A stretch of DNA of 64,000 nt, taken from positions 29,110 to 93,109 of the forward strand of contig JAWKHP010000003.1 in NCBI GenBank assembly GCA_041394745.1, read 5' to 3'. Below are positions 28,789 to 64,000 of this stretch, in pieces. The notes beneath the pieces are model-generated. The model worked only from the letters and a program-made list of their open reading frames with translations. It was not told the DNA's origin and did not search any database. A program made the position numbers and the translations under genes. How positions within the stretch are numbered: position 1 is the first letter of the stretch; each line of letters begins with the position of its first letter. This stretch comes from Thermoanaerobaculia bacterium (GTDB lineage: Bacteria; Acidobacteriota; Thermoanaerobaculia; Multivoradales; JAHEKO01).

Positions 28789-29544
28789 ATGACCGACACG
28801 CCCCCCCAGCGCTTCGCCGGCCGCGCCATCCTCGTGTCCGGTTCGACCCGCGGCATCGGCCGAGGGATCGCCGAGCGTCTGCTCGCCGAGGGCGCCGTGG
28901 TCGGCATCCACGGCAGGAGCCCGGAGGCGGTCGAGGAGGCGGCCCGCGCGCTCCATGCCGAGCGGGCGGTGCCGGTCGCCGCCGACCTCTCCGAGCCCGA
29001 GCGGGCGCGGGAGATGGTGGAGGGGTTCGTCGCCGCGGCCGGCGGCCTCGACGGCCTGGTCAACAACGCCGGCGGCGGCCGCTCGGCAGGGTTCCGGGCG
29101 CTCACGTTGGAGGCGTGGCGCGAGACCTTCCGCGTCAACCTCGAGTCCGCCGTCGTGGCCTGCCAGACGGCCTACGGCGTCTTGAGGAAGCAACGGCGGG
29201 GCGCCATCGTCAACGTCTGCTCGCTGGCCGCGCACGGGCCCGGGCGGTGGATGGGCGCCGACTACGCGGCGTCGAAGGCCGGGCTGCTCTCCGTGACCCA
29301 GAGCCTGGCGGTCGAGGCGGCGCGCTTCGGCGTGCGCTGCAACGCCGTCTCCCCGGGGTTCATCGAGACCGACATGACGGGGACCATCCCGGAGGAGGCG
29401 CGCGAGGGTCTCTCGATCCCTCTCGGCGCCCTCGGCACTCCGGCCCAGGTGGGAGGCGTCGTGGCCTTCCTGCTCTCCGACGACGCCTCCTACCTCACCG
29501 GCCAGGTCGTGCACGTCGACGGCGGCCTGTGGATGAACGGATGA
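28789..29544 (+). CDS. SDR-family oxidoreductase (3-oxoacyl-ACP reductase FabG-like)
   Basis: GSTRGIGRGIAERL (TGxxxGIG), NNAG and YAASKAG (YxxxK) motifs are present. Confidence 0.75.
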   Translation: MTDTPPQRFAGRAILVSGSTRGIGRGIAERLLAEGAVVGIHGRSPEAVEEAARALHAERAVPVAADLSEPERAREMVEGFVAAAGGLDGLVNNAGGGRSAGFRALTLEAWRETFRVNLESAVVACQTAYGVLRKQRRGAIVNVCSLAAHGPGRWMGADYAASKAGLLSVTQSLAVEAARFGVRCNAVSPGFIETDMTGTIPEEAREGLSIPLGALGTPAQVGGVVAFLLSDDASYLTGQVVHVDGGLWMNG

Positions 29545-48611: not shown

Positions 48612-49857
48612 GTGTCCTTCCGGCCCATCTTCCTCACCGTGGTCCTCGCCACGGCGCTGGTCGTCGCGGCGTTCGTGCTTCACGGCGAGAGGCCGGCGAT
48701 CGAGCGGGAGCAGCCGACCGCCGCGCTGGCGCGTGCCACCGGCAAGTGCGCCGAGTGCCACGCGCGGGAGACGCCGGGCGTCGTGCACGAGTTCGAGACC
48801 AGCCGGCACGCGGCGCGGGGCGTCAGCTGCCTGGACTGTCACCGGCCGGCGGAGGGTCAGGAGGAGGTCGATCATCAGGGCTTCGTCATTTCGGGCACGG
48901 TGACCGCCAAGAGCTGCTCCACGCCACCGCGGGCAGTACGAGCAGTACCTTCGCAGCCGGCATGCGGCGCCCGCGTGGGCGGCGGTCCGGGGAGCGGGTG
49001 ACTTCTCGGCCGCGCAGGTGGCGGCGGCGGAGGCGTTGCACCCGGGAGCGGTGGACCGCCCGGCCAACGCGTTGGCGGCGCTCGAAGGGGGACCCGCCCA
49101 GACGAGCGGGTGCCAGCGCTGCCACGACGTCGGCCGGCCCAACGCCGACGGCTCGATCGGTGCCTGCACGGCGTGCCACGCGCGCCACGCGGCTTCGATC
49201 GAGCTCGCCCGCACGCCGGAGACGTGCGGCCAGTGCCACATGGGTCCCGACCACTCCCAGATCGAGATCTACCGCGAGTCGAAGCACGGCGTCCTGTTCC
49301 ACACCCAGAGGGCGTCGATGAACCTGGGGGCCGATCCGAAGCGCCTCACCACCCGGGACATGCCCGTGCCCACCTGCGCCACCTGTCACATGAGCGGCCT
49401 GGAGGGTGCCAAGGTCACCCACGACACCACCGAGCGCCTCTCCTACTGGCTCTTCGCGGAGGTCTCCGAGCGCCGGCCGGCGGCGACCCGGGGAGCGCAG
49501 GAGATGCAGGATCTGTGCGCCAACTGCCACGCGCGGGACTCGATCGAGCGTTTCTACGCCCAGGCGGCGGACGTGGTCACGCGGACCAACGACCTGGTCC
49601 GCCGCGGCAGGGAGGTGATCGAAGGCCTGAGGGCCGAGCACCGCCTCTCGCCCGAGCCCTTCGACGAGCCGATCGAGTTCGCCTACTTCGACCTCTGGCA
49701 CTACTACGGACGAACCGCCAAGCACGGCGCCTTCATGGGCGGAGCCGACTTCGTCCAGTGGCACGGGTTCTACGAGCTGACCCACGGTCTCGCCGAGATC
49801 GAGGACGAGGCGGCACGGCTGCGCGGGGTGGAGGCCGGTGCGACGCCGGCTCCCTGA
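48612..49857 (+). CDS. multihaem (probably octahaem) c-type cytochrome, HAO/Otr-like, split by an indel near 48930
   Basis: A GTG start gives the signal anchor VSFRPIFLTVVLATALVVAAFVLHG. CxxCH motifs are CAECH and CLDCH (frame of ORF 48414), then CQRCH, CTACH, CGQCH, CATCH and CANCH (frame of ORF 49018). A shifted reading gives ...AKSCSTCHRGQYEQYLRSRHAAPAWAAVRGAGDFSAAQVAAAEALHPGAV with a possible eighth CSTCH. Confidence 0.65.
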
Positions 49858-50695
49858 GTCCCTCGCCCGCCCGTCCCTCCAGGTCGAGCTCTTCGTGCTC
49901 GCCAACCTGGCCTTCCTTTCGCTCGACATCGCGGTCGCCCATTCGGTCAATCGCTTCGCCGAGCCCGCCGAGTGGCTGCCGCTGGCCTTCTCCCTCCTGG
50001 CACCGTGGGTACTCCTGGTCGCCCTCTGGCTGGACCGCTGGCGGCCGGGGAGGCAAGGGCGCGGCCGCACCCTCGGTCTCGCGGTGGGCTGGGGGAGCGT
50101 CGCCGTCGGCGTGGGGGGTCTGCTCTTCCACCTCGACAGCCGCTTCTTCGCCGAGCAGACCCTCGAAAACCTCGTCTACACGGCGCCGTTCGTCGCCCCG
50201 TTGGCCTACACCGGTCTCGGGCTGCTGCTGCTGTTGGACCGCACCGTCTCCGATCGCGAGCCGGAGTGGGCCCGCTGGGTGCTGCTGCTCGCGGCAGGAG
50301 GCTTCGCCGGCAACTTCGTCCTCAGCCTCGCCGACCACGCGCAGAACGGCTTCTTCGACCCCCGGGAGTGGATCGCCGTGGGTGCTGCCGCCCTGGGCCT
50401 CTCGACCCTGCTGGTAGCGACCGTCTCGCGCCCGAGCCGGGGATGGCTGCGTTTCGTGATCGGCATCCTGATCCTCGAGGCGCTCGTCGGTCTCCTCGGC
50501 GCCTGGCTGCACTGGCGGGCGATTCTCGCGAGCCCCATGAGCCGGCCGCTGGAGCGGGTCGTCTACTCGGCACCCGCCTTCGCGCCGCTTCTCTTCCCCA
50601 ACCTCGCCCTGCTCGCCGCGCTCGCCGTGGCGGCGGCTCGGCCCGACAGTGAACCCGGCGTCCTCTCGAGCGTAGAAGGGGACCAGGCCGGCTGA
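49838..50695 (+). CDS. polytopic membrane protein (about 7-8 TM helices) overlapping the cytochrome gene end
   Basis: A 285-aa ORF with a GTG start, hydrophobic throughout (LFVLANLAFLSLDIAVAHSV...FVLSLADHAQNGFFDPREWIAVGAAALGLSTLL...). Confidence 0.55.
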   Translation: MRRRLPESLARPSLQVELFVLANLAFLSLDIAVAHSVNRFAEPAEWLPLAFSLLAPWVLLVALWLDRWRPGRQGRGRTLGLAVGWGSVAVGVGGLLFHLDSRFFAEQTLENLVYTAPFVAPLAYTGLGLLLLLDRTVSDREPEWARWVLLLAAGGFAGNFVLSLADHAQNGFFDPREWIAVGAAALGLSTLLVATVSRPSRGWLRFVIGILILEALVGLLGAWLHWRAILASPMSRPLERVVYSAPAFAPLLFPNLALLAALAVAAARPDSEPGVLSSVEGDQAG

Positions 50696-50725
50696 TGTGC
50701 TAAAAAAACTGCAGGAGGACGTCCA

Positions 50726-54004
<3,279 letters not shown>

Positions 54005-54007
54005 AGG

Positions 54008-54140
54008 GCAAGAAAAGAGGGACAGGATCACTTTTCAACGCCCCGATCGCCTCCGTTCCCGGCGTCGGGGAGAAAAAGGGATCCTGTCCCTCTTTTTTCT
54101 GCGGCCTCCCGGGGTGGGACCGGGAGGCCGCGAGGGAGGG
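54008..54140. terminator. bidirectional terminator region between the convergent tricorn and giant-protein genes, with nested hairpins
   Basis: Long stem AAGAAAAGAGGGACAGGATC (54011-54030) pairs with GATCCTGTCCCTCTTTTTTCT (54080-54100) and ends in a T run. A second stem is CGGCCTCCCGG(ggtgggac)CGGGAGGCCG at 54102-54130. Confidence 0.45.
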
Positions 54141-54142
54141 CC

Positions 54143-57100
54143 CTAGTTGGCGCAGATGGCGATGTCGTCGACGCCGGCCTCGATCAGGTCGCCGCTGGCG
54201 GTGCCGTCGGAGGCCTGGACGCGGAAGCGGACGCTGGAGCCCGCCGGGACCGCGGTGGTCGCCTCGGTCCACGCGGCGTTGCTGGTGACGTCGCCGAGGG
54301 AGACCATCGGGGTCCAGGTCGAGCCGCCGTTGGTGGAGATCTCGAGGCGGAAGAAGTCGCCGCTCGGATCGCCGCCGGCGTCGCGCTGGCCGTGGAAGTA
54401 CCAGACCGAGACGTCGGACGACTCGCTCACCGGGTAGACCGGCGACAGCGCGATGCAGTTGCCGCCGTCGACGTCGTCGGTGCCCGCCGCCGTGTTGACG
54501 GCGGTGAAGAAGGCGTTGCCCGTCCCGGTCGTGTGGTCGCCGCCGACCTGGGTGACGACCCCGCCGTTGGTGACCTGGGTGGGCGTGCCGACGACGAAGG
54601 CACCGGTCGTGCAAGTGCTGGAACCGCTGTTGGTCCAGCCCTCGGCGCCGCCGCTGAAGTGCGCGTCGACGCTGCACGCGGAGGCCGTTCCTCCGGTCAC
54701 CACGACGTCGTCGACGAACCACCCGGTGAAGTTGTTGAAGGAGCCGTCGATCGAGTCGAAGCGGAACCGGATCTGGATGTCGTTGCCGGCGAAGGCGGCG
54801 AGAGAGATCGGTCCGCTGGAGACCCAGGCGGCGGTCGAGGCGTTGGTGGAGTCACGCGACCACACCGTCGTCCACGAGCCGCTGCCGGCCACCGAGACGG
54901 CGACCTGCGTCTGGTCGAAGGAGCCTCCGGCGTAGGACTCGACGACCCGGTAGTAGTCGAACGAGAGCTCCGAGGAGGCGGTGACTCCGCTGATGGCCGG
55001 GGAGATCAGATCGCCGGTGGTGTCGCCCGCGTTGTAGGTGCAGGTGGAGTTCTGACCGTAGTAGACCGACGAGACCGGGGAGGAGTAGCCGGGGCTGGCG
55101 CAGCCGGAGCTCGACACCAGGTGCCACAGGCCACTCGTGGTCCAACCGGAGAGACCGCTCTCGAAGTCCTCTTCGAACGGGTTGCCGCCGCCGGCCGGCG
55201 TGATCGTGATGCCGATCGCGTCGGAGTCGGAGAGGCCGCCGGAGTCGGTGACCGAGGCGGTGATGGTGTGGCTGCCGATCGAGAGTGAGCTGGTGGAGAA
55301 CGAGGCCCCGGAGCCGATGGCCCCGTCGAGGCTCGAGGTCCACGACAGGCTCGAGGAGAGCGGACCGTCCTCGGCGTCCGTGGCGGTGCCGCTGAACGAG
55401 ATCGAGCTGCCGACGACGAAGGAGGCACCGTTCGACGGTGCGGTGATCGTCACGCTCGGCGGCGTGTTGGACGCACCACCGCCGGTGACGACGACGTCGT
55501 CGACGAACCACCCGGTGAAGTTGTTGAAGCTGCCGTCGATCGAGTCGAAGCGGAAGCGGATCCGGATGTCGTTTCCGGCGAAGCCGGCGAGGGAGATCGC
55601 ACCGCTGGCGGCCCAGGCCGCGGTCGAGGCGTTGGTGGAGTCGCGCGACCAGACCGTCGTCCACGAGCCGCTGCCGGCCACCGAGACGGCGACCTGCGTC
55701 TGATCGTAGGAGCCTCCGGCGTAGGACTCGACGACCCGGTAGTAGTCGAACGAGAGCTCCGAGGAGGCGGTGATGCCGGTGACGACGGGCGAGATGAGGT
55801 CACCGGTGGTGTCCCCCGCGTCGTACGTGCAGGTCGAGTTCTGACCGTAGTAGAGCGAGGAGACCGGTGAAGAGTAGCCGGGGCTGGCGCATCCGGAGCT
55901 CGAGACCAGGTGCCACAAGCCGCTCGTGGTCCAGGCCCCGAGGCCACCCTCGAAGTCCTCGTGCAGGCGCTCGCCGCCCGCCGAGGTGATGGTCACGCTG
56001 ATCGAGTCGGAGCCCGAGGCGCCGCCCGAGTCGGTGACCGAAGCGGTGATGGTGTGGGTGCCCACCGACAGCGAGCTGATGGAGAACGACGCGCCGGAGC
56101 CGATCGAGCCGTCGCGACTCGAGGTCCAGGAGAGGCTCGAGGAAAGCGGGCCGTCCTCGGCGTCGGTGGCCGTCCCCGCGAACGAGACGGACGCACCCTC
56201 GGCGAAGCTGGAACCGTCGGCCGGGGCCGTGATCGTCACCACCGGGGCCTGATTGACCGGTCCGCCGCACCCCGGAATGCTGAAGGCGCCGACGTGGGTG
56301 CGCCAGGAGGCGCTGCTGGTCGAGGCCAGGTACTCGGTGGTGAACCAGAAGGTGCAGTCGTCCGCCGGGTCGAGCTCCATCGAGGCGTAGTCGCCCCAGC
56401 GCGCGGCGCTGTGGGTCTGTGAGCCGCCGCCGGCGAGCAGCACGGACTCGGCCTCGAGCGTGCCGAGGGGGTCGCCGGCGTCGCGCGTGGCGTAGTAGAT
56501 CGACGGGAAGTTGCTGGCGTTGCCGCGGCTGTAGCCGAGCGCGATGTTGCCGGAGCCGTCCATGGCGATGGAGGGCATCCAGCGGTGCACGGCGTCGGGC
56601 GAGTGCGTGCCCTGCTGATAGAGGGTCCAGCCCGCGCCGGTATCGCGCAGCTCGAACCAGCGCGGAGCCGCCCGGTTGCCGGTGGAATTGACGTCCACCG
56701 TCCAGGCACCCACGAGGGTCTCGTGACTGCCGAAGTTGCGATAGACGAGGCGCTGCATCGGCCACCACGAGGCGCTGTCGATGCCCTGGCTCGTGCCGGG
56801 CTGCGGGATGCAGTTGGAGACGAAGAAGCCGCACACGGTCCAGTTGAAGTTGGCGAGCCCCTGGCTCGGAGTGATCGAGCGCACGAGGCTGATCGAGGAG
56901 CTCGACGGGGTGTTCCAGTCGACGTGGAACTCGTAGACGTCGAGCGAGTCCGTCGCCGGGGAGCCGAAGTAGGGCTCACCGCCGTCCCGGAAGCTGTAGA
57001 ACGTTCCGGGCCTGTTGGCCGGCGGCGGCGTGGCGCCGTCGGAATCGGCGGGCATCATCAGGTTGGGGAAGCTCTGGAAGAACTGCATCGGCCGCGCCGT

Positions 57101-58387
57101 CTGCCCCGCGATCATCCGCGCGCGGTCGATGGCGAAGACGTCGTACTGGTTCTGGGAGCCGGAGTTGGTGCCCATGAAGTACGCGTTGTTGTTCGCCGCC
57201 GGCCAGACACCGAGCTTGAAGTAGTCGGGGAATCGCGGGGTGACGACCTCGTAGAGGTACCAGGAGCCGGTGGGGTCGGGGGTCTGCGAGACGGCGAAGC
57301 ACACCGACTCGTTGTTGTTCGAGACCGCGAACTGGGAGAGGACGAAGCGGTTCGCCTGCTGGTCGTAGAGGGCGATCGCGTCGCCGTCGTTGAAACTCTG
57401 GCACGGTCCGCCGAAGCCCGACCACAGTGAGCTGGTGTTGGTCGGGCCGGTGAGCTTGGTGCCGCTCTTGTCGTAGATGGCGAAGGAGAGGTTGACGACC
57501 TGGATGTAGTGGTTCGGACCGACCGTTCCCTCGGTGTCGGGAGGCAGCACGCCGTTGACGTTGTTGATGCCCTCGAAGTCGAGCGACAGGGAGGGCGTGC
57601 GGCCGGGGGCCTCTGCGCCCGGACCGGCGAGGACGTCCTCGGACTTCGGGGCGGTGGTACCGAAGAGGTTGCCGTTCTCGTCGAAGAGGGTCTCGTGGCG
57701 CAGCTCGTTGACCTCTTCGCCGCGGTCCTTCAGGGTGCCGGTGACGGCGAGCGGCAGGTCGCGGACGGGGAGGGAGAGGCGCGGCCCGAGCACCGGCACC
57801 TCGAAGGGCCGGCGCCGGGTGCCGTGGTCGTTGCGGTCACCGCGCGTGCCGCCGCCGTCGGCCATCGGTCGCAAGATGGCGGCCTGGACGGCGCTCGCGC
57901 CGCCGGGGATCCGGTATCCCTCGAAGTGCGGCCCGGGGGCGCCCGGCGTGCGGACTCCCGCGGCCACCAGCACGGACTCGAGCGTGTGTCCCGCCGGGAG
58001 GATGCCCACGCGCGGCCCGTAGGCCAGGCCGTCCAACGTGAGCTCGAGCTCGACCTCGGGGCAGGCCGCGAAGACGTCCTGCAGGGAGGCGAGCAGGCTG
58101 CCGGGGGCGGCCTCACCGCGGCCGAGATCGATCGAGAAGTCGCCATGGCGCATGGTGGTCGGCGGCAGGGTCTCGGCATAGAGCTCCGCCCCCTCGGGGT
58201 CGAAGTAGCGGGCCGTGACCGAGACGGTGCCGTCGAGCGGCTGGCCCGCGGCGTCGAGCGCCCGACCGCGGTAACCGAGATGCTCGGGTACCGAGACGGC
58301 CGCGACCGGCAGCGCGCCGAACAGGAGGATGCAGGCGGCGGTCGCCGCCCACGCGCTCAGGGGAGCTCTCGAGGTGCAACGGATCAT
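54143..58387 (-). CDS. giant secreted multidomain protein (1413 aa): N-terminal region, propeller-like domain, two tandem PKD/Ig-like plus MAM/LamG-like jelly-roll modules, and a C-terminal MAM-like domain
   Basis: The Met at 58387 (ggagaa RBS) gives the signal MIRCTSRAPLSAWAATAACILLFGALPVAAVSV. The Ig-like region reads ITAPADGSSF...ITASVTDSGG. The jelly-roll region starts EDFE(G/S)GL(G/S)(A/G)WTTSGLWHLVSS...FDYYRVVESYAGGS...FRFDSIDGSFNNFTGWFVDDVVV. The gene is intact over 4.2 kb. Confidence 0.7.
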   Translation of the reverse strand: MIRCTSRAPLSAWAATAACILLFGALPVAAVSVPEHLGYRGRALDAAGQPLDGTVSVTARYFDPEGAELYAETLPPTTMRHGDFSIDLGRGEAAPGSLLASLQDVFAACPEVELELTLDGLAYGPRVGILPAGHTLESVLVAAGVRTPGAPGPHFEGYRIPGGASAVQAAILRPMADGGGTRGDRNDHGTRRRPFEVPVLGPRLSLPVRDLPLAVTGTLKDRGEEVNELRHETLFDENGNLFGTTAPKSEDVLAGPGAEAPGRTPSLSLDFEGINNVNGVLPPDTEGTVGPNHYIQVVNLSFAIYDKSGTKLTGPTNTSSLWSGFGGPCQSFNDGDAIALYDQQANRFVLSQFAVSNNNESVCFAVSQTPDPTGSWYLYEVVTPRFPDYFKLGVWPAANNNAYFMGTNSGSQNQYDVFAIDRARMIAGQTARPMQFFQSFPNLMMPADSDGATPPPANRPGTFYSFRDGGEPYFGSPATDSLDVYEFHVDWNTPSSSSISLVRSITPSQGLANFNWTVCGFFVSNCIPQPGTSQGIDSASWWPMQRLVYRNFGSHETLVGAWTVDVNSTGNRAAPRWFELRDTGAGWTLYQQGTHSPDAVHRWMPSIAMDGSGNIALGYSRGNASNFPSIYYATRDAGDPLGTLEAESVLLAGGGSQTHSAARWGDYASMELDPADDCTFWFTTEYLASTSSASWRTHVGAFSIPGCGGPVNQAPVVTITAPADGSSFAEGASVSFAGTATDAEDGPLSSSLSWTSSRDGSIGSGASFSISSLSVGTHTITASVTDSGGASGSDSISVTITSAGGERLHEDFEGGLGAWTTSGLWHLVSSSGCASPGYSSPVSSLYYGQNSTCTYDAGDTTGDLISPVVTGITASSELSFDYYRVVESYAGGSYDQTQVAVSVAGSGSWTTVWSRDSTNASTAAWAASGAISLAGFAGNDIRIRFRFDSIDGSFNNFTGWFVDDVVVTGGGASNTPPSVTITAPSNGASFVVGSSISFSGTATDAEDGPLSSSLSWTSSLDGAIGSGASFSTSSLSIGSHTITASVTDSGGLSDSDAIGITITPAGGGNPFEEDFESGLSGWTTSGLWHLVSSSGCASPGYSSPVSSVYYGQNSTCTYNAGDTTGDLISPAISGVTASSELSFDYYRVVESYAGGSFDQTQVAVSVAGSGSWTTVWSRDSTNASTAAWVSSGPISLAAFAGNDIQIRFRFDSIDGSFNNFTGWFVDDVVVTGGTASACSVDAHFSGGAEGWTNSGSSTCTTGAFVVGTPTQVTNGGVVTQVGGDHTTGTGNAFFTAVNTAAGTDDVDGGNCIALSPVYPVSESSDVSVWYFHGQRDAGGDPSGDFFRLEISTNGGSTWTPMVSLGDVTSNAAWTEATTAVPAGSSVRFRVQASDGTASGDLIEAGVDDIAICAN
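54702..56280. repeat. intragenic tandem duplication, 2 x 789 bp at about 93-95% nucleotide identity (encodes the duplicated PKD+MAM module)
   Basis: 'acgacgtcgtcgacgaaccacccggtgaagttgttgaag' occurs at 54702 and again at 55491. The alignment continues for about 790 bp with scattered substitutions. Confidence 0.7.
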
Positions 58388-58605
58388 CGTGGTTCTCCTT
58401 CCGACGGCATCCGCCGTCCGGTGGAAACAGACTGATTGCCGGTCGTTCGGGCCGGTGCGGCCGGCGCGGCCGCCCGTGGAAGCGCATCGCCGGTGGACCG
58501 TGCGCCACGCTCTCTGGGGCTTGTTTGACCTCAGATTTAGCACAAGCCGCGGCACGCCCGCGTGACGTGGTCCACAGCGGCCCTCATCGGGCCCTCATCG
58601 TTTCC

Positions 58606-60192
58606 TCAGCGGAGCGGCTCGGTCGGCTCCGTCGGTGCGTCGGGGAGCCGCCCGGCGCGGTAGGCGGCCAGCCGAGCCTCGGCGCGGCGGCGGCCGGGAC
58701 CGGCGGGCCACGCCTCGACGGCGCGCCGCTGGGCGGCGGTCGCGGCGTCGAAGTCACCGCCGGCGGCGAGGACCATGGCCGTCGTCTCGAGCCCCTGCAC
58801 CGTGTCGCCGCCGGTGAGGGAGCGCACCAGCTCCTCCGCCCGGAGCGCTGCCTCGGGCGTACCGGAGAACGCCAGAAGGCGGGCCAGGAGCAGGCGCGGA
58901 CCCTGGGCCTCGGGGGCCACCGGGAGGAACGCCTCGAGGTCCGCGACCGCCCGCTCCGCCTCGCCGGACCTCAGCAGGCAGCGCGCCCTGCCGGTGACGG
59001 CCCCGGCGAGACCCTCGTCGAGCGCGAGCGCCTCGCCGTAGGCGACGTCGGCCTCTCCGCAGCGCCCGGCGCGGCGCAGCAGGTCGCCGAGCGCCACCTG
59101 CGACTCCGCGTCGAGGGGGTCGAGCTCGACCGCCCGGCGCAGCAGACGCTCGCCGTCCTCGCGCTCGCCCAGCTCCTCGCGCAAGAGGCCGAGCCGGCGG
59201 ACCGCCGGCGGGTAGTCGGGCCGCTCCTCGAGCAGGCTCGCGATCTCCTCGCGCGCCTCCTCGGGGCGGCCGAGACGGGTGAGGAGATCGGCGATGTCGA
59301 GTCGAGCGTAGATCCGGTCGGGCTCCATCCGCAGGGCCTGTCGGAGCTCGACGAGAGCCAGCTCGAGGCGTCCGCGGCTCCTCGCTTCGAGGGCGCGGAC
59401 GTCGTGCTCCCGGGCGTCGCTGCGCAGCTGTGCCACCTCGCGCCACACCGGGTCGAGCCGGCGGAGCTCGTCGGCCAGCGTGGCCGTGCCCGTGACTCCT
59501 TCGAGCGCTCGGCCCGCGCCGTCGAGGTCGCCGCTGCGGCGACGGGCCTCAGCCTCCAGGTGGGCCAAGGCGGGTGAGCGGAGCCCGTCGGAGCGGGCGG
59601 CGGCCAGGTGCTCGAGGGCGACCCGGGGCCGCTCCTGCTGGAGGGCGAGACGGGCCAGCTCGGCCTGGGCGAGGCCGCGGACCGCGCCGCCGGGGGCGCG
59701 CGGGAGGACGGCGCGCGCAGCCCGTCCCGCGCCTTCGGCGTCGCCGGTCGCGAAGCGCAGCTCGGCGATCCAGAGGCCGGTGATCGGCTCGTTCCGGGCC
59801 TCGGCTCCCGCTCCTTCGAGCACCTCGAGCGCCTCGGCCGGGCGGCCGTCGCGCAGCCAGGCGTGCGCCAGCAGGGAGGTCCAGCGCGGCTCGGAGGGCG
59901 CCAGCTCGTGGGCGACGCGAAGGCAGGTGCGAGCGCTCTCGAGCGGGCCGTAGGCGAGATGGAAGGTACCGAGCTCGCCGAACGCGGCGGCGCGGCGGGC
60001 GTCCCCCGTGGCTCCGGGAGGCTCCCGCCGGGCCTCTCGGACACCGTCGGAGAGCCGGTCGTAGAGCTCGCCCACGGCAGGGCTCCAGAGGGAGCGATCG
60101 AGAGGCGGCCGGAGCTCGGGCAGCTCGGTGCGGTGGGGCGCGCAGGCGAACAGGGCGGACAGCAGGATCGCGGCGGGGGTCGGGCGCTTCAC
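58606..60192 (-). CDS. TPR-repeat lipoprotein
   Basis: MKRPTPAAILLSALFACAP (lipobox) is followed by multiple TPR-like helical repeats over 528 aa. Confidence 0.55.
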   Translation of the reverse strand: MKRPTPAAILLSALFACAPHRTELPELRPPLDRSLWSPAVGELYDRLSDGVREARREPPGATGDARRAAAFGELGTFHLAYGPLESARTCLRVAHELAPSEPRWTSLLAHAWLRDGRPAEALEVLEGAGAEARNEPITGLWIAELRFATGDAEGAGRAARAVLPRAPGGAVRGLAQAELARLALQQERPRVALEHLAAARSDGLRSPALAHLEAEARRRSGDLDGAGRALEGVTGTATLADELRRLDPVWREVAQLRSDAREHDVRALEARSRGRLELALVELRQALRMEPDRIYARLDIADLLTRLGRPEEAREEIASLLEERPDYPPAVRRLGLLREELGEREDGERLLRRAVELDPLDAESQVALGDLLRRAGRCGEADVAYGEALALDEGLAGAVTGRARCLLRSGEAERAVADLEAFLPVAPEAQGPRLLLARLLAFSGTPEAALRAEELVRSLTGGDTVQGLETTAMVLAAGGDFDAATAAQRRAVEAWPAGPGRRRAEARLAAYRAGRLPDAPTEPTEPLR

Positions 60193-61883
60193 CGCGCCCT
60201 CGCCGGTCCGAAGACGTAGAGACGGCCGGGCCGCGGGTCGAGCAGACGAAGGGGGCGCTCCGGACGCGCGAGGAGCAGGGCCGAAGGGCGCCGACCGCCG
60301 AGGCCGAAGAGCGCCCTGGGGTCCGATGCCGAGGCGAAGCTCCCGTCCGTCTTGAAGCGGCGGCGCTGTCGCCGCCCGCCCGCCTCGAGGTCGACGGTCC
60401 GGGAGGCGAGCCCGGCCGCCACGGCCGTGGGCCGGGCGTCGGCGCCGAGCCAGTCGGCGGCGGCCGGGGCGCCCTCCCGCACCAGGACGCGGACCGGACC
60501 GTTGTTGTTCTGCACCACGAGGTCGGCGTCGCCGTCGCCGTCCAGATCCCCGACGGCCAGCCCCCGGCCGACCTCCGGCGCGGCGAGGTCGTCGATCCCG
60601 GTGCGCACCTCCTCGAAGCGACCCTCGCCGAGATTGTGAAAGAGCTGCCCGGCCTGTCGCAGGGGGTGGGCGAGGCCGGCGCGCCGCTGCTCTTCGATGA
60701 GCTGGATGGAGCCGTTGACGACCGCCAGGTCGAGGAGGCCGTCGAGGTCGTAGTCGAGCGGCACGGCCCCGAAACCGGTGCGGTTCCAGCTCGGGGGGCC
60801 GAGTCCCGAGGGCTCGCTGCGGTCCTCGAAGACGCCGTCCCGATTGCGGTAGAGAGTGTTGGTCTCGCCGTCGAGGTGGGTCAGGAAGACGTCCTCGTCG
60901 AGATCGTCGTCGAGGTCGGCGGCGACCGTCCCCATGCTCGCCTCCGGAGCGCCCAGGAGGTTGACGGCCGCACCGCGCAGCACGGCCTCGTCCCGAAAGG
61001 CGCCGTCGGCGTGTTGGAGCCAGAGCTGGTTGGCCATCAGGTCGTTGCTGACGTAGAAGTCGAGGCGGCCGTCGCCGTCGAAGTCCCCGCTGGCGACGCC
61101 GAGGCCCTTTCCGATCACGGAGCGGAGGCCGGCGGCGACCGTGACGTCCTCGAATCGACCGTCACCCACGTTGTGGAGGAGCCGATCGGGAACGGGGCCG
61201 AAGCCCTGCGGCCCGCAGTAGGCGGGCGCTCCGGCGGCGTCGAGACAGGGCCGTGCGTTGGCCAGGCGGTAGTCGAGATAGTCGACGACGTAGAGGTCCA
61301 GACGACCGTCGCCGTCGTAGTCGGCGAGCGCGGCGCTGGTCGAGAAGCGGGGATCGTCCACGGCGGGATCCGGGGCCGCCGGCGAGAACGTGCCGTCGCC
61401 GTCGTTGAGCCAGAGCCGGTTGGGACCGAAGTCCGTGAGGTAGAGGTCCTCGTCGCCGTCGCCGTCCACGTCGCCGGCCGCGACGCCGATGCCGTAGCCG
61501 TACGCCGCGAGGCGGCTGGAGGGCGTGACGTCGAGGAAGGCGAGCCGGCGGGTGCCCTCGGCCGCGGCCCGCAGATCGTTGCGGAAGAGGCGGTCCCCGC
61601 CGGTCTCCGGCGCGGGGTGCGAGGGATCCAGACGGTGCCCCTGGCGCAGGTAGACGTCGAGGTCCCCGTCCCCGTCGTAGTCGACCAGGGCGACGCCGGC
61701 GCCGAGGTTCTCGACCAGGTAGAGCGCCCCGGTCATGCCGTTGTCGTGCCGGAAGTGCAAGCCCGCCTGCGCCGCGACGTCCCGGAAGAGAGGGGGAGGG
61801 GCCTGCGGCGAGCATGCGCTCCAGAGGGTCCAGGCCGCCAGGGTCCGGAGCGCGAGGGCGCGTCTGCGACGGGAGTCCGACAC
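60189..61883 (-). CDS. FG-GAP/VCBS-repeat, CRTAC1 (ASPIC/UnbV)-family lipoprotein
   Basis: A GTG start gives VSDSRRRRALALRTLAAWTLWSAC (lipobox). It has repeated DxDGDGxxD Ca-binding FG-GAP blades and a C-terminal UnbV/ASPIC-like segment. Its stop overlaps the TPR gene start by 4 nt. Confidence 0.7.
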   Translation of the reverse strand: MSDSRRRRALALRTLAAWTLWSACSPQAPPPLFRDVAAQAGLHFRHDNGMTGALYLVENLGAGVALVDYDGDGDLDVYLRQGHRLDPSHPAPETGGDRLFRNDLRAAAEGTRRLAFLDVTPSSRLAAYGYGIGVAAGDVDGDGDEDLYLTDFGPNRLWLNDGDGTFSPAAPDPAVDDPRFSTSAALADYDGDGRLDLYVVDYLDYRLANARPCLDAAGAPAYCGPQGFGPVPDRLLHNVGDGRFEDVTVAAGLRSVIGKGLGVASGDFDGDGRLDFYVSNDLMANQLWLQHADGAFRDEAVLRGAAVNLLGAPEASMGTVAADLDDDLDEDVFLTHLDGETNTLYRNRDGVFEDRSEPSGLGPPSWNRTGFGAVPLDYDLDGLLDLAVVNGSIQLIEEQRRAGLAHPLRQAGQLFHNLGEGRFEEVRTGIDDLAAPEVGRGLAVGDLDGDGDADLVVQNNNGPVRVLVREGAPAAADWLGADARPTAVAAGLASRTVDLEAGGRRQRRRFKTDGSFASASDPRALFGLGGRRPSALLLARPERPLRLLDPRPGRLYVFGPARAR

Positions 61884-61963
61884 GTTTCGGGATTCTAGTG
61901 TCCCGGCGCGGTTTGACAGCCTCGGGGGCAGCCTCGACAATACCCCCCGCGCCGGCTCCCTCG

Positions 61964-64000
61964 ATGCACCGCTCCCTCCACTTCCGTTCACGCTCCGCCA
62001 CGCTCCTGGTCGCCTTGGCGACGGCGGTGTCGGCACTTCTGTCGGGGTGCTCGCGCCGGGAACCCTGGAACGTGCTCCTGGTGACGTTCGACACCACGCG
62101 GGCCGATCACCTGGGCCCCTACGGCGACCGCGACGTCCGGACGCCGACCCTCGACGCCCTGGCCGCCGAGGGCGTGCTCTTCGAGGAGGCGACGAGCGCC
62201 GTGCCGATCACCATGCCGTCGCACACGACGATCCTCACCGGCGAGTACCCGCTGGGCCACGGCGTGCGCGACAACGGCAACTTCGTGCTCTCGCCGGAGG
62301 TCACGACGCTGCCGGAGGTCCTCCGGGCACGGGGCTGGCACACGGCGGCCGCCGTCGGGGGCTTCCCGCTCGTCGCGCGGTTCGGCCTGAACCAGGGGTT
62401 CGAGCTCTACGACGACCGCTTGCGTCGCAAGGACGACGACTATCTCGGACGCTCCGGTCGCGGCCCTTCCCTCTACTTCGAGGAGCGGCGCGCGGGTCGG
62501 GTCGCGGAGGCGCTGCTCCCCTGGCTACGACGGGAGGAGCACCGGCCCTTCTTCGCCTGGATGCATTTCTACGATCCCCACCAGCCCTTCGATCCGCCGC
62601 CGCCCTACGATCAGCTCTTCGCGGCGGACCCGTACTCGGGGGAGATCAGCTACGCGGACGAGGTGCTGGGAGACGTGCTCGGGGAGCTGCGTCGGCTGGG
62701 GCTCTGGGAGCGCACCGTCGTCGTCTTCACCGCGGACCACGGCGAGGGCCGCGGGCAGCACCGGGAGATGACGCACTCCTATCTGGTCTACCAGACGACG
62801 CAGCACGTGCCGCTCATCCTCAGGATCCCCGGCGGTCCGGCCGGTCTCCGGGTGAGCGAGCGCGTGAGCTCCGTCGACATCGCGCCGACGATCCTCGACC
62901 TGCTGGGGGTCGAGGTGCCGGCGAGCATGCAGGGGACGAGCCTCGTCGGCCTCTTCGACGACAGCCGGCCCGAGCCCCGCGCGCGTCCGTTCTACGCCGA
63001 GACGCTCTCGCCCTGGTTGAGCCAGGGGTGGGGAGAGCAGCGCGCCCTCTTCGAGGACGGCTGGAAGTACATCCACGGGCCGCGTCCCGAGCTCTATCAC
63101 CTCGACGAGGACCCGCAGGAGCTCCACGACCTGGCCGCAGCGGATCCCGAACGGGCCACGGCGATGCGCGAGACCCTCGCCGCCTTCGTGGAGCGCCACG
63201 CCACCGCCTCGAGCGTCGCCTCTCCCGTCGACGAGGACACGCGAGCGCAGCTGCAGGCCCTGGGCTACCTCAGTGCCAACGGCGCGGAAACCGAGATCGA
63301 CGAGACGTTGCGCGACGAGGGCATTCCTCCGCAGGACCGGATCGAGACCCTCAACGCCAACTCCACCGTGCGCTCGCTGCTGACCAAGGGGCAAGCGCTG
63401 CCGGCCCTCGAGGAGATCGAGAAGCTGTTGCGCGACGATCCCGACAACCGCTTCTATCTCGAGAACGCGGCGCGGGCCGAGGCGATGCTGGGCCGCTACG
63501 ACGCCGCCCTCGCCCGGCTCGACCACCTCGAGCGCCTGGCGCCGCTGGGACCGACCGGAGCGCGGTTGCTCTGCGAGGTCGGCAGCGCGCGCTACGCCGC
63601 CGGAGAGCGAGTGGAGGGGATCGACGCCGTGCGCCGCGGCGTCGCTCTCGCCCCTTCGGCTCCGACGTCGTATCTGCTGGCGCTGATGCTCGCCGAGCAG
63701 GGGATGCCGGGCTCCGACGCGCTGCTCGCGCAGGCGCTGGAGGAGGATCCGACGTTCGCGCCGGCGCGGTTGGAGATCGCGGTACGCCTCGATCGGGAGG
63801 GGAGGAGCGAGGAGGCCGAAGAACAGTTCCAGCGCGCCGTGAGGGACCGCCCCTACGATCCGCGGGCGCAGTACAACTACGCCACCTACCTGCTCCACGA
63901 CGGCCGCCTGGAAGAGGCCGCGGAGCGGTTCGAGCGCGCCATCGAGCTGGGTGAGACCTACCCGGAGGCCTACTACGGCGCCGTCGTCGCCCGGGTCGCC
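61964..64000 (+). CDS. sulfatase-family lipoprotein with a C-terminal TPR region; 3' end beyond the window
   Basis: The ATG at 61964 gives MHRSLHFRSRSATLLVALATAVSALLSGC (lipobox) and VLLVTFDTTRADHLGPYG (sulfatase metal and FGly-site region with PSHTT). It has no stop through the window end, so it is absent from the ORF track. Confidence 0.75.
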   Translation, partial: MHRSLHFRSRSATLLVALATAVSALLSGCSRREPWNVLLVTFDTTRADHLGPYGDRDVRTPTLDALAAEGVLFEEATSAVPITMPSHTTILTGEYPLGHGVRDNGNFVLSPEVTTLPEVLRARGWHTAAAVGGFPLVARFGLNQGFELYDDRLRRKDDDYLGRSGRGPSLYFEERRAGRVAEALLPWLRREEHRPFFAWMHFYDPHQPFDPPPPYDQLFAADPYSGEISYADEVLGDVLGELRRLGLWERTVVVFTADHGEGRGQHREMTHSYLVYQTTQHVPLILRIPGGPAGLRVSERVSSVDIAPTILDLLGVEVPASMQGTSLVGLFDDSRPEPRARPFYAETLSPWLSQGWGEQRALFEDGWKYIHGPRPELYHLDEDPQELHDLAAADPERATAMRETLAAFVERHATASSVASPVDEDTRAQLQALGYLSANGAETEIDETLRDEGIPPQDRIETLNANSTVRSLLTKGQALPALEEIEKLLRDDPDNRFYLENAARAEAMLGRYDAALARLDHLERLAPLGPTGARLLCEVGSARYAAGERVEGIDAVRRGVALAPSAPTSYLLALMLAEQGMPGSDALLAQALEEDPTFAPARLEIAVRLDREGRSEEAEEQFQRAVRDRPYDPRAQYNYATYLLHDGRLEEAAERFERAIELGETYPEAYYGAVVARVA

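Follow-up and report, generated by a model that had tools for sequence, protein, structure and literature searches.

A probably old, lineage-specific domain duplication in the gene of a secreted modular β-propeller protein from a Thermoanaerobaculia bacterium

We asked how old a tandem repeat is that lies in a minus-strand gene of a Thermoanaerobaculia bacterium (GenBank assembly GCA_041394745.1, contig JAWKHP010000003.1), within a 64,000-nucleotide (nt) stretch of DNA (contig positions 29,110 to 93,109) that we call the window and from whose first letter positions are counted unless another sequence is named. The gene encodes a protein with a β-propeller core, followed by two successive copies of a module that consists of an immunoglobulin-like (Ig) domain and a MAM-like jelly-roll. 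The original prediction saw in this repeat a recent duplication inside a giant surface protein, open to copy-number variation by recombination. Our analysis points to another history: the repeat is probably the product of an old, lineage-specific domain duplication and not a young, recombination-prone element.

A repeat scan of positions 50000-60000 returned two families of direct repeats, one of 300 nt at 93% identity (spacing 789 nt) and one of 297 nt at 77% (spacing 786 nt), and comparison of the protein with itself gave 114 shared 4-mers at offset 263 and 35 at offset 262. With a start-to-start spacing of 789/786 nt, and with both units in frame within the intact minus-strand open reading frame (ORF) 54143..58555, the prediction that a complete two-domain module was duplicated in tandem and in frame was borne out. 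The similarity extends from ~54683-54690 to ~56257-56268, close to the 54702-56280 first proposed. When the whole window was searched with unit 2 by tblastn, the two copies and no others were found; the 789-nt repeat was not reported by Tandem Repeats Finder, the period being above its 500-nt limit.

The two copies proved less alike than predicted. Codon-aligned, the units differ at 126 of 786 nt (84.0% nt identity; 84% amino acid (aa) identity), and the 93-95% nt identity claimed for the whole is approached solely in one 300-nt block of the MAM-like part, which reaches 93% (Table 1). In 60-nt windows, identity lies between 0.68 and 0.97, and the longest exact runs common to both copies measure 66, 50 and 39 nt. 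The Ig parts of the units are 77-78% identical in nt and 74-76% in aa, and the MAM-like parts 88% and 90%, respectively. The description of each unit as an Ig/PKD-like plus a MAM-like domain stands. The units are not of equal length: they comprise 262 and 263 codons and differ by a one-codon indel.

Synonymous divergence (dS, NG86) between the units is 0.42 overall, 0.53 in the Ig part and 0.31 in the MAM part; dN/dS is 0.27, and the inter-copy substitutions are mostly conservative (A/S, V/I, Y/F, R/Q). The GC content at third codon positions (GC3) of the gene is 0.94, a composition at which 75-80% nt identity between homologous domains is nearly uninformative on the age of a duplication. We examined how often the copies share the same codon at aa-identical positions, relative to the expectation from the gene's own codon usage. 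In the Ig part the observed sharing was 0.65 against 0.57 expected (z=1.7) and in the first third of MAM 0.68 against 0.59 (z=1.4); in the last ~100 codons of MAM it was 0.83 against 0.63 (z=4.5). Because same-codon use is near expectation outside these last ~100 codons, synonymous sites are essentially saturated over ~60% of the unit. A recent duplication would show near-zero synonymous divergence and a similarity above the family background over the whole unit. We found a dS of 0.42 instead, and solely the MAM halves exceed that background (90% vs at most 77%). Given this dS, the near-random codon choice in the Ig part and the first third of MAM, and an Ig-Ig similarity at family level, the duplication cannot be called recent.

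The two halves of the unit behave differently. Ig1 and Ig2 are 74% identical in aa and 77% in nt (same-codon z=1.76), which is indistinguishable from Ig(a) and Ig(b) of the homologue P0012 (77% aa, 79% nt, z=1.25), a pair set apart by an unrelated domain; across the family, Ig identity averages ~0.69-0.70. Moreover, the P0007 Ig domains resemble Ig2 more closely (80-81%) than Ig1 does. MAM1 and MAM2 are 90% identical sisters, and outside this pair P0197 comes closest, with 75-77% identity. By these sequence comparisons the duplication-specific signal is confined to the MAM halves, and membership of the Ig half in the same event cannot be shown. A sister relationship of Ig1 and Ig2, which would have supported recent duplication of the unit, was tried and rejected: the neighbour-joining tree was poorly resolved and placed Ig2 with the P0007 Ig domains and Ig1 separately.

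A module profile built from both copies and four homologues matched 57 proteins in an indexed database and 6,094 cluster representatives in an exhaustive search. Lineage-specific duplication or homogenisation of the MAM module is commonplace, because many of these representatives hold 2-12 copies and, in every multi-copy MAM protein tested, the copies were each other's closest relatives. The metagenomic relatives that combine MAM, Ig and the C-terminal domain all carry a single MAM, and single units are also present in distant members of the core family (core-Ig-MAM in P0252, core-MAM-Ig in P0205). Elsewhere the module follows Trypsin_2, M28, M36 and S8 peptidase domains. The nearest MAM relatives share the C-terminal domain (62-71% identity) and have different N-terminal enzymes; module shuffling is clearly active among such proteins.

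A maximum chi-square test on synonymous sites placed a breakpoint near unit codon 163, the rate being 0.34 on the left side and 0.16 on the right (permutation p≈0.05). The last ~300 nt of the MAM copies were thus possibly homogenised later by gene conversion, for which the test is suggestive and not proof. The concerted evolution offered as an alternative to recent duplication in the original prediction is weakly supported, by this one tract.

The repeated domains were assigned as follows. Big_7 (PF17957) matched the whole protein in two stretches and passed the Pfam gathering threshold (Table 1), and Pfam PKD and K319L-like_PKD fell just below their own cut-offs; this assignment to the Big_7/PKD bacterial Ig domains covers the first ~100 aa of each unit, and PDB collagenase PKD domains match the Ig part at E=6e-6. 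MAM2 alone scored 18.0 bits against PF20773 (InhA-like_MAM; E=0.0022), below the gathering threshold of 26.9, the whole protein gave no PF20773 match at E<=0.1, and a direct search of the MAM module against PDB sequences yielded nothing useful. As its own Pfam score is sub-threshold, family membership was established through relatives and structure. PF20773 was matched at E<=1e-3 by 21 of the 36 aligned module relatives (best E=1e-15), and many module-profile matches carry a precomputed PF20773 annotation. The AF2 model of unit 2 (pLDDT 92.1) shows an Ig sandwich and a jelly-roll (162 aa, MAM-like), and Foldseek matched it to the MAM domains of meprin β (4gwn), neuropilin-1 (5l73) and RPTPμ (2c9a), with a TM on target of 0.58-0.64 for MAM-domain structures; PKD-CBM44 (2c26), reelin subrepeats, the gingipain K1 adhesin, CBM22 and InhA2 (4yu6) were also matched. 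Judged from the relatives' Pfam matches and the AF2 model, the repeated jelly-roll belongs to the InhA-like MAM domains as a divergent member. The protein's final 179 aa aligned with the MAM alignment (hhalign probability 97.3%, E=2.6e-11) and are 59% identical to the C-terminus of P0001 and 62-71% to the C-termini of P0138, P0197, P0206, P0200 and P0227, so that this C-terminal domain is, by sequence, a third, distantly related MAM-like jelly-roll. A literature search on bacterial InhA MAM domains found nothing.

InhA-like MAM (PF20773) accompanies immune inhibitor A (M6) and other secreted peptidases as an accessory jelly-roll; the module resembles it in the Pfam matches of its relatives, in a predicted jelly-roll that fits the MAM domains named above and Bacillus anthracis InhA2, and in the position of its relatives, which lie C-terminal to peptidase domains and are often multi-copy. 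Unlike that system, the copies in the window score below the family cut-off and are attached to a β-propeller, not to a peptidase. The best structural match to the whole unit was PKD-CBM44 of Clostridium thermocellum Cel9D-Cel44A (Foldseek E=4.7e-11), in which an Ig/PKD domain precedes a β-sandwich binding module as in the repeat unit; sequence identity is 18%, however, and the relative domain orientation differs (root-mean-square deviation 14 Å). A likeness in structure only was also found to the "cleaved adhesin" domains (K1/K2/K3) of the gingipains Kgp and RgpA and of HagA, which are jelly-rolls of homologous fold (4itc, E=1.8e-5), are repeated within secreted proteins and mediate adhesion, but follow a cysteine-protease domain.

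Two Ig-domain positions, ~710 and ~975, recur in all close homologues listed; 11 of these (P0001-P0006, P0009-P0013) have an unrelated domain of ~172 aa, domain X, in the interval. Against P0001, its closest homologue, the gene aligns collinearly: both run core, Ig, then X (P0001) or MAM1 (here), then Ig, then nothing (P0001) or MAM2 (here), and then the C-terminal domain. Domain X is conserved among these closest homologues (for example P0001 residues 816-988; L062), with the pattern NGPQ…CDS…EPNQPNT…DESNDRIVV, and MAM1 occupies the X slot here. The possibility that X is a diverged MAM, which would make the architectures orthologous, was rejected (hhalign probability 0.7%), and X had no Pfam match.

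A core-Ig-X-Ig-C-terminal ancestor, built like P0001, could instead have gained MAM modules by recombination with another modular gene, for example through a MAM-Ig-MAM cassette, such as those that end secreted peptidases, replacing X-Ig, in which case the 789-nt period would be a by-product of the alternation of Ig and MAM modules. We regard this as rather unlikely, although it accommodates several of the observations: MAM1 lies exactly in the X slot of an otherwise collinear gene, with MAM2 as an extra insert; X is without homology to MAM; the similarity of Ig1 and Ig2 is at family background; MAM-Ig-MAM recurs in P0178, P0179, P0181, P0183, P0299 and P0182 behind differing catalytic domains, and as a C-terminal cassette it ends secreted peptidases with Trypsin_2, M28 and M36 domains; and the nearest MAM relatives also bear the C-terminal domain behind different N-terminal enzymes. 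However, MAM1 and MAM2 are far closer to each other (90%) than to any other known MAM (at most 77%), the nearest relatives all have a single MAM, so that duplication or conversion within the lineage would still be needed, and no donor cassette was found in the window by tblastn. Old duplication, the preferred explanation, has its own weak points, and the order of events is one of them: the Ig domains may be older than the MAM copies, in which case one module was replaced and another inserted, and the 789 nt were not duplicated as a whole. Likewise, dS at 94% GC3 is hard to calibrate, and "old" is meant relatively, as near saturation and not strain-level; the synonymous heterogeneity is borderline and could reflect local codon constraint. 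Two histories are compatible with these comparisons, an old duplication of an Ig-MAM unit, or placement of MAM copies into an existing Ig-X-Ig scaffold, possibly as a MAM-Ig-MAM cassette.

That the repeat is instead a recent duplication, or under ongoing concerted evolution, and so a copy-number hotspot in a surface protein resembling the periscope proteins, appears improbable. Periscope proteins and similar surface adhesins (SasG, Sgo_0707, Rib) are secreted and have long, structured tandem repeats of at least 80% protein identity, and their detection criteria ask for repeats of >50 residues at >=80% identity (PMC8201768). The 263-aa unit, at 84% aa identity, is long and similar enough to be detected in this way, and the 300-nt block at 93%, the exact runs of 66 and 50 nt, the borderline homogenised tract and the mutual closeness of MAM copies in every multi-copy relative are all compatible with such a reading. 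What also marks that class, however, is a large number of copies with very high DNA identity, a documented variation in length and an anchor. The window gene has two units only, of two alternating domain types, at 84% DNA identity and with synonymous sites near saturation over ~60% of the unit; near-identical domains are never adjacent in its ABAB order, and neither an anchor motif, on reading the sequence, nor a multi-copy, stalk-like array was recognised. Copy-number variants were not found in the collections searched, which hold no close relatives: close orthologues were not found, the best matches being 49% identical in genome contigs, 49-72% per segment in metagenome contigs and 56-61% in the protein database, and the protein itself is not among their entries. 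Divergence of 16% strongly depresses homologous recombination. Unequal recombination within the 300-nt block would be possible in principle and, on established knowledge, should be rare. An assembly artefact, whether expansion of a single unit or a chimera that joined two strains' alleles in tandem, is scarcely credible. The best relatives are proteins from metagenomes and metagenome-assembled genomes (MAGs), the host is apparently uncultured and of high GC, and strain mixtures can yield tandem pseudo-duplications; but the 126 differences in 786 nt and the codon indel go far beyond strain alleles, the divergence is structured by domain with a dN/dS of 0.27, no break in frame occurs, exact runs do not exceed 66 nt, and the MAM-to-Ig and Ig-to-MAM junctions resemble natural ones in P0178, P0121 and others. 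Because 16% divergence lets ordinary reads tell the copies apart, collapse or expansion during assembly, which had been thought likely here, is unlikely, and the locus poses no serious assembly risk.

The features of the gene are collected in Table 1. The ORF 54143..58555 encodes 1470 aa, and the start codon is probably the ATG at 58387 (M57 of the ORF), since alignments to homologues with 56-61% identity begin near residue 6 of the protein counted from M57. The predicted product would comprise, in order, a signal peptide, a small β domain, the β-propeller core, Ig1, MAM-like 1, Ig2, MAM-like 2 and the divergent third MAM-like domain. Its C-terminus is the jelly-roll domain itself (…GVDDIAICAN). 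Reading the sequence revealed neither a sorting signal there nor any recognisable anchor, and the whole-protein Pfam and NCBIfam matches included no anchor family. The "giant surface protein" of the original prediction is large but not giant, at 1,414 aa with a signal peptide; rather than a giant adhesin, the product is a secreted β-propeller protein from a modular family that is uncharacterised.

Table 1. Positions in the window of the gene, its domains and the most similar block of the two repeat units
Feature	Position	Strand	Basis
Whole gene, 1,414 aa (stop codon 54143-54145)	54143..58387	minus	ORF and homologue alignment
Predicted Sec signal peptide, MIRCTSRAPLSAWAATAACILLFGALPVAAVS	58292..58387	minus	Prediction from reading the translation; homologues with equivalent hydrophobic N-termini
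N-terminal all-β domain, ~110 aa	57953..58291	minus	Confident AF2 model; sub-threshold NF053851 match
β-propeller core, sialidase-like fold, without curated family	56258..57610	minus	AF2, Foldseek, 655 homologues
Ig1 and linker, Big_7/PKD-type, repeat unit 1	55958..56257	minus	Pfam PKD, K319L-like_PKD and Big_7; PDB collagenase PKD; hidden Markov model domain 711-806
MAM1, MAM-like jelly-roll, repeat unit 1	55472..55957	minus	tblastn, 90% aa identity to MAM2; family evidence
Ig2 and linker, repeat unit 2	55169..55471	minus	Pfam Big_7, 34.9 bits vs cut-off 24.1; AF2 β-sandwich
MAM2, MAM-like jelly-roll, repeat unit 2	54683..55168	minus	PF20773 E=0.002, sub-threshold; relatives; AF2 and Foldseek
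93%-identical block, candidate gene-conversion tract, last ~100 codons of MAM	54690..54989, partner 55479-55778	minus	Identity, codon and chi-square analyses
C-terminal domain, predicted third, distant MAM-like jelly-roll	54146..54682	minus	hhalign; identity to homologue C-termini

The core was modelled with confidence as an all-β protein with a β-propeller fold (AF2 pLDDT 91.8, pTM 0.93), and its best Foldseek matches in the PDB were the pseudaminidase of Pseudomonas aeruginosa (3h6j/2w38), CylK, PL25, GH93 and sialidases, with modest TM scores of 0.29-0.42. The core (residues ~260-710) had no Pfam or NCBIfam family match; in the model it has the propeller fold of the sialidases (GH33), and its sequence matched neither the BNR/Asp-box nor the sialidase profiles of these databases. 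In the protein database 655 homologues were found, the closest being 56-61% identical and the few named ones deriving from Thermoanaerobaculia/Acidobacteriota MAGs; more distant homologues are found in Gammaproteobacteria, Bacteroidota, Verrucomicrobiota and Nitrospirota. Across these hundreds of homologues in at least five phyla, certain Cys, Asp and Trp residues of the ~450-aa core are invariant, and it has an RWGDY motif. It may represent a new domain family and possibly an enzyme. The N-terminal β domain matched NF053851 (Bdello_MAT_N) weakly, with 28.5 bits, and 3 of the 8 homologues scanned did so with 21-23 bits, all well short of the curated cut-off of 60; NF053851 models the N-terminal part of the mosaic adhesive trimer fibre of Bdellovibrio.

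The homologues P0001, P0009 and P0012 resemble the protein over the signal peptide, the N-terminal domain, the propeller and the first Ig (56-61% identity), with collinear Ig positions and, in P0001, a common C-terminal domain. They differ in having domain X between the Ig domains, and the MAM-like module was present in none of the 29 homologues read; their C-terminal sets vary widely and include extra Ig domains, a DNRLRE domain, Cys-rich repeats, a P-domain and others. In a relative (L063, 3001-6789 and 6975-9789), two paralogues of the core family adjoin (P0012 and a 982-aa neighbour, apparently P0020) and have differing C-terminal modules, which suggests local paralogue expansion with cassette diversification. 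Adjacent Ig domains with 91-94% protein identity occur in P0002 (1078, 1171) and P0007 (998, 1091), and recent duplication or length variation is more plausible in these pairs than in the repeat described here.

A wider interpretation, which we put forward as doubtful, is that the gene belongs to an undescribed secreted "chassis plus cassette" family of Thermoanaerobaculia-like Acidobacteriota and many other phyla. The chassis would consist of the conserved N-terminal domain, faintly Bdellovibrio-MAT-like, and the sialidase-fold β-propeller without curated family, and the cassettes would be rapidly shuffled C-terminal binding modules (Ig, MAM-like, X, DNRLRE, P-domain, Cys-rich repeats). Some relatives do have tandem paralogues that bear different C-terminal sets. 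The MAM duplication, together with its possible conversion tract, would then be one snapshot of an ongoing module exchange that diversifies target recognition.

Several neighbouring genes were noted in passing. A convergent gene on the plus strand (50726-54004) encodes a 1,092-aa protease that is tricorn-like by our reading, its stop codon 139 nt from that of the repeat-bearing gene; NCBIfam gave only sub-cut-off matches, to TolB-type β-propeller repeats and C-terminal-processing (S41) peptidase models. The plus-strand ORF 49018-49857 contains several CxxCH haem-binding motifs and weakly matches a hydrazine-dehydrogenase/HAO-type multihaem cytochrome model (65 bits vs a cut-off of 900). Upstream and on the same strand as the repeat-bearing gene lie a gene for a TPR-repeat protein (58606-60192) and one for a 615-aa protein rich in "DxDGDGxxD" motifs (60189-62036), FG-GAP/VCBS-like by eye; these two ORFs share 4 nt and may therefore be co-transcribed.

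To return to the old duplication that we favour, this event would have set sister copies of the MAM-like jelly-roll (162 aa) behind two Ig spacer domains, and purifying selection would have maintained both ever since, with the last ~300 nt possibly re-homogenised in the way described; the ABAB order would keep near-identical domains from becoming adjacent. The Ig domains likely serve as spacers, and the MAM/CBM-like jelly-rolls, including the third, as binding or adhesion modules that would add valency or reach to the propeller; at the C-terminal ends of many secreted peptidases the same module would play such a part. Without population data, annotating the locus as a phase-variable or length-variable surface gene is not warranted. 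Tandem duplication of an Ig domain with a binding module is a common route by which secreted bacterial proteins grow, and the present case appears to be an old and stable one under purifying selection. The host gene, with its modelled propeller that lacks a curated family and its very variable C-terminal modules, is of greater interest than the repeat itself.

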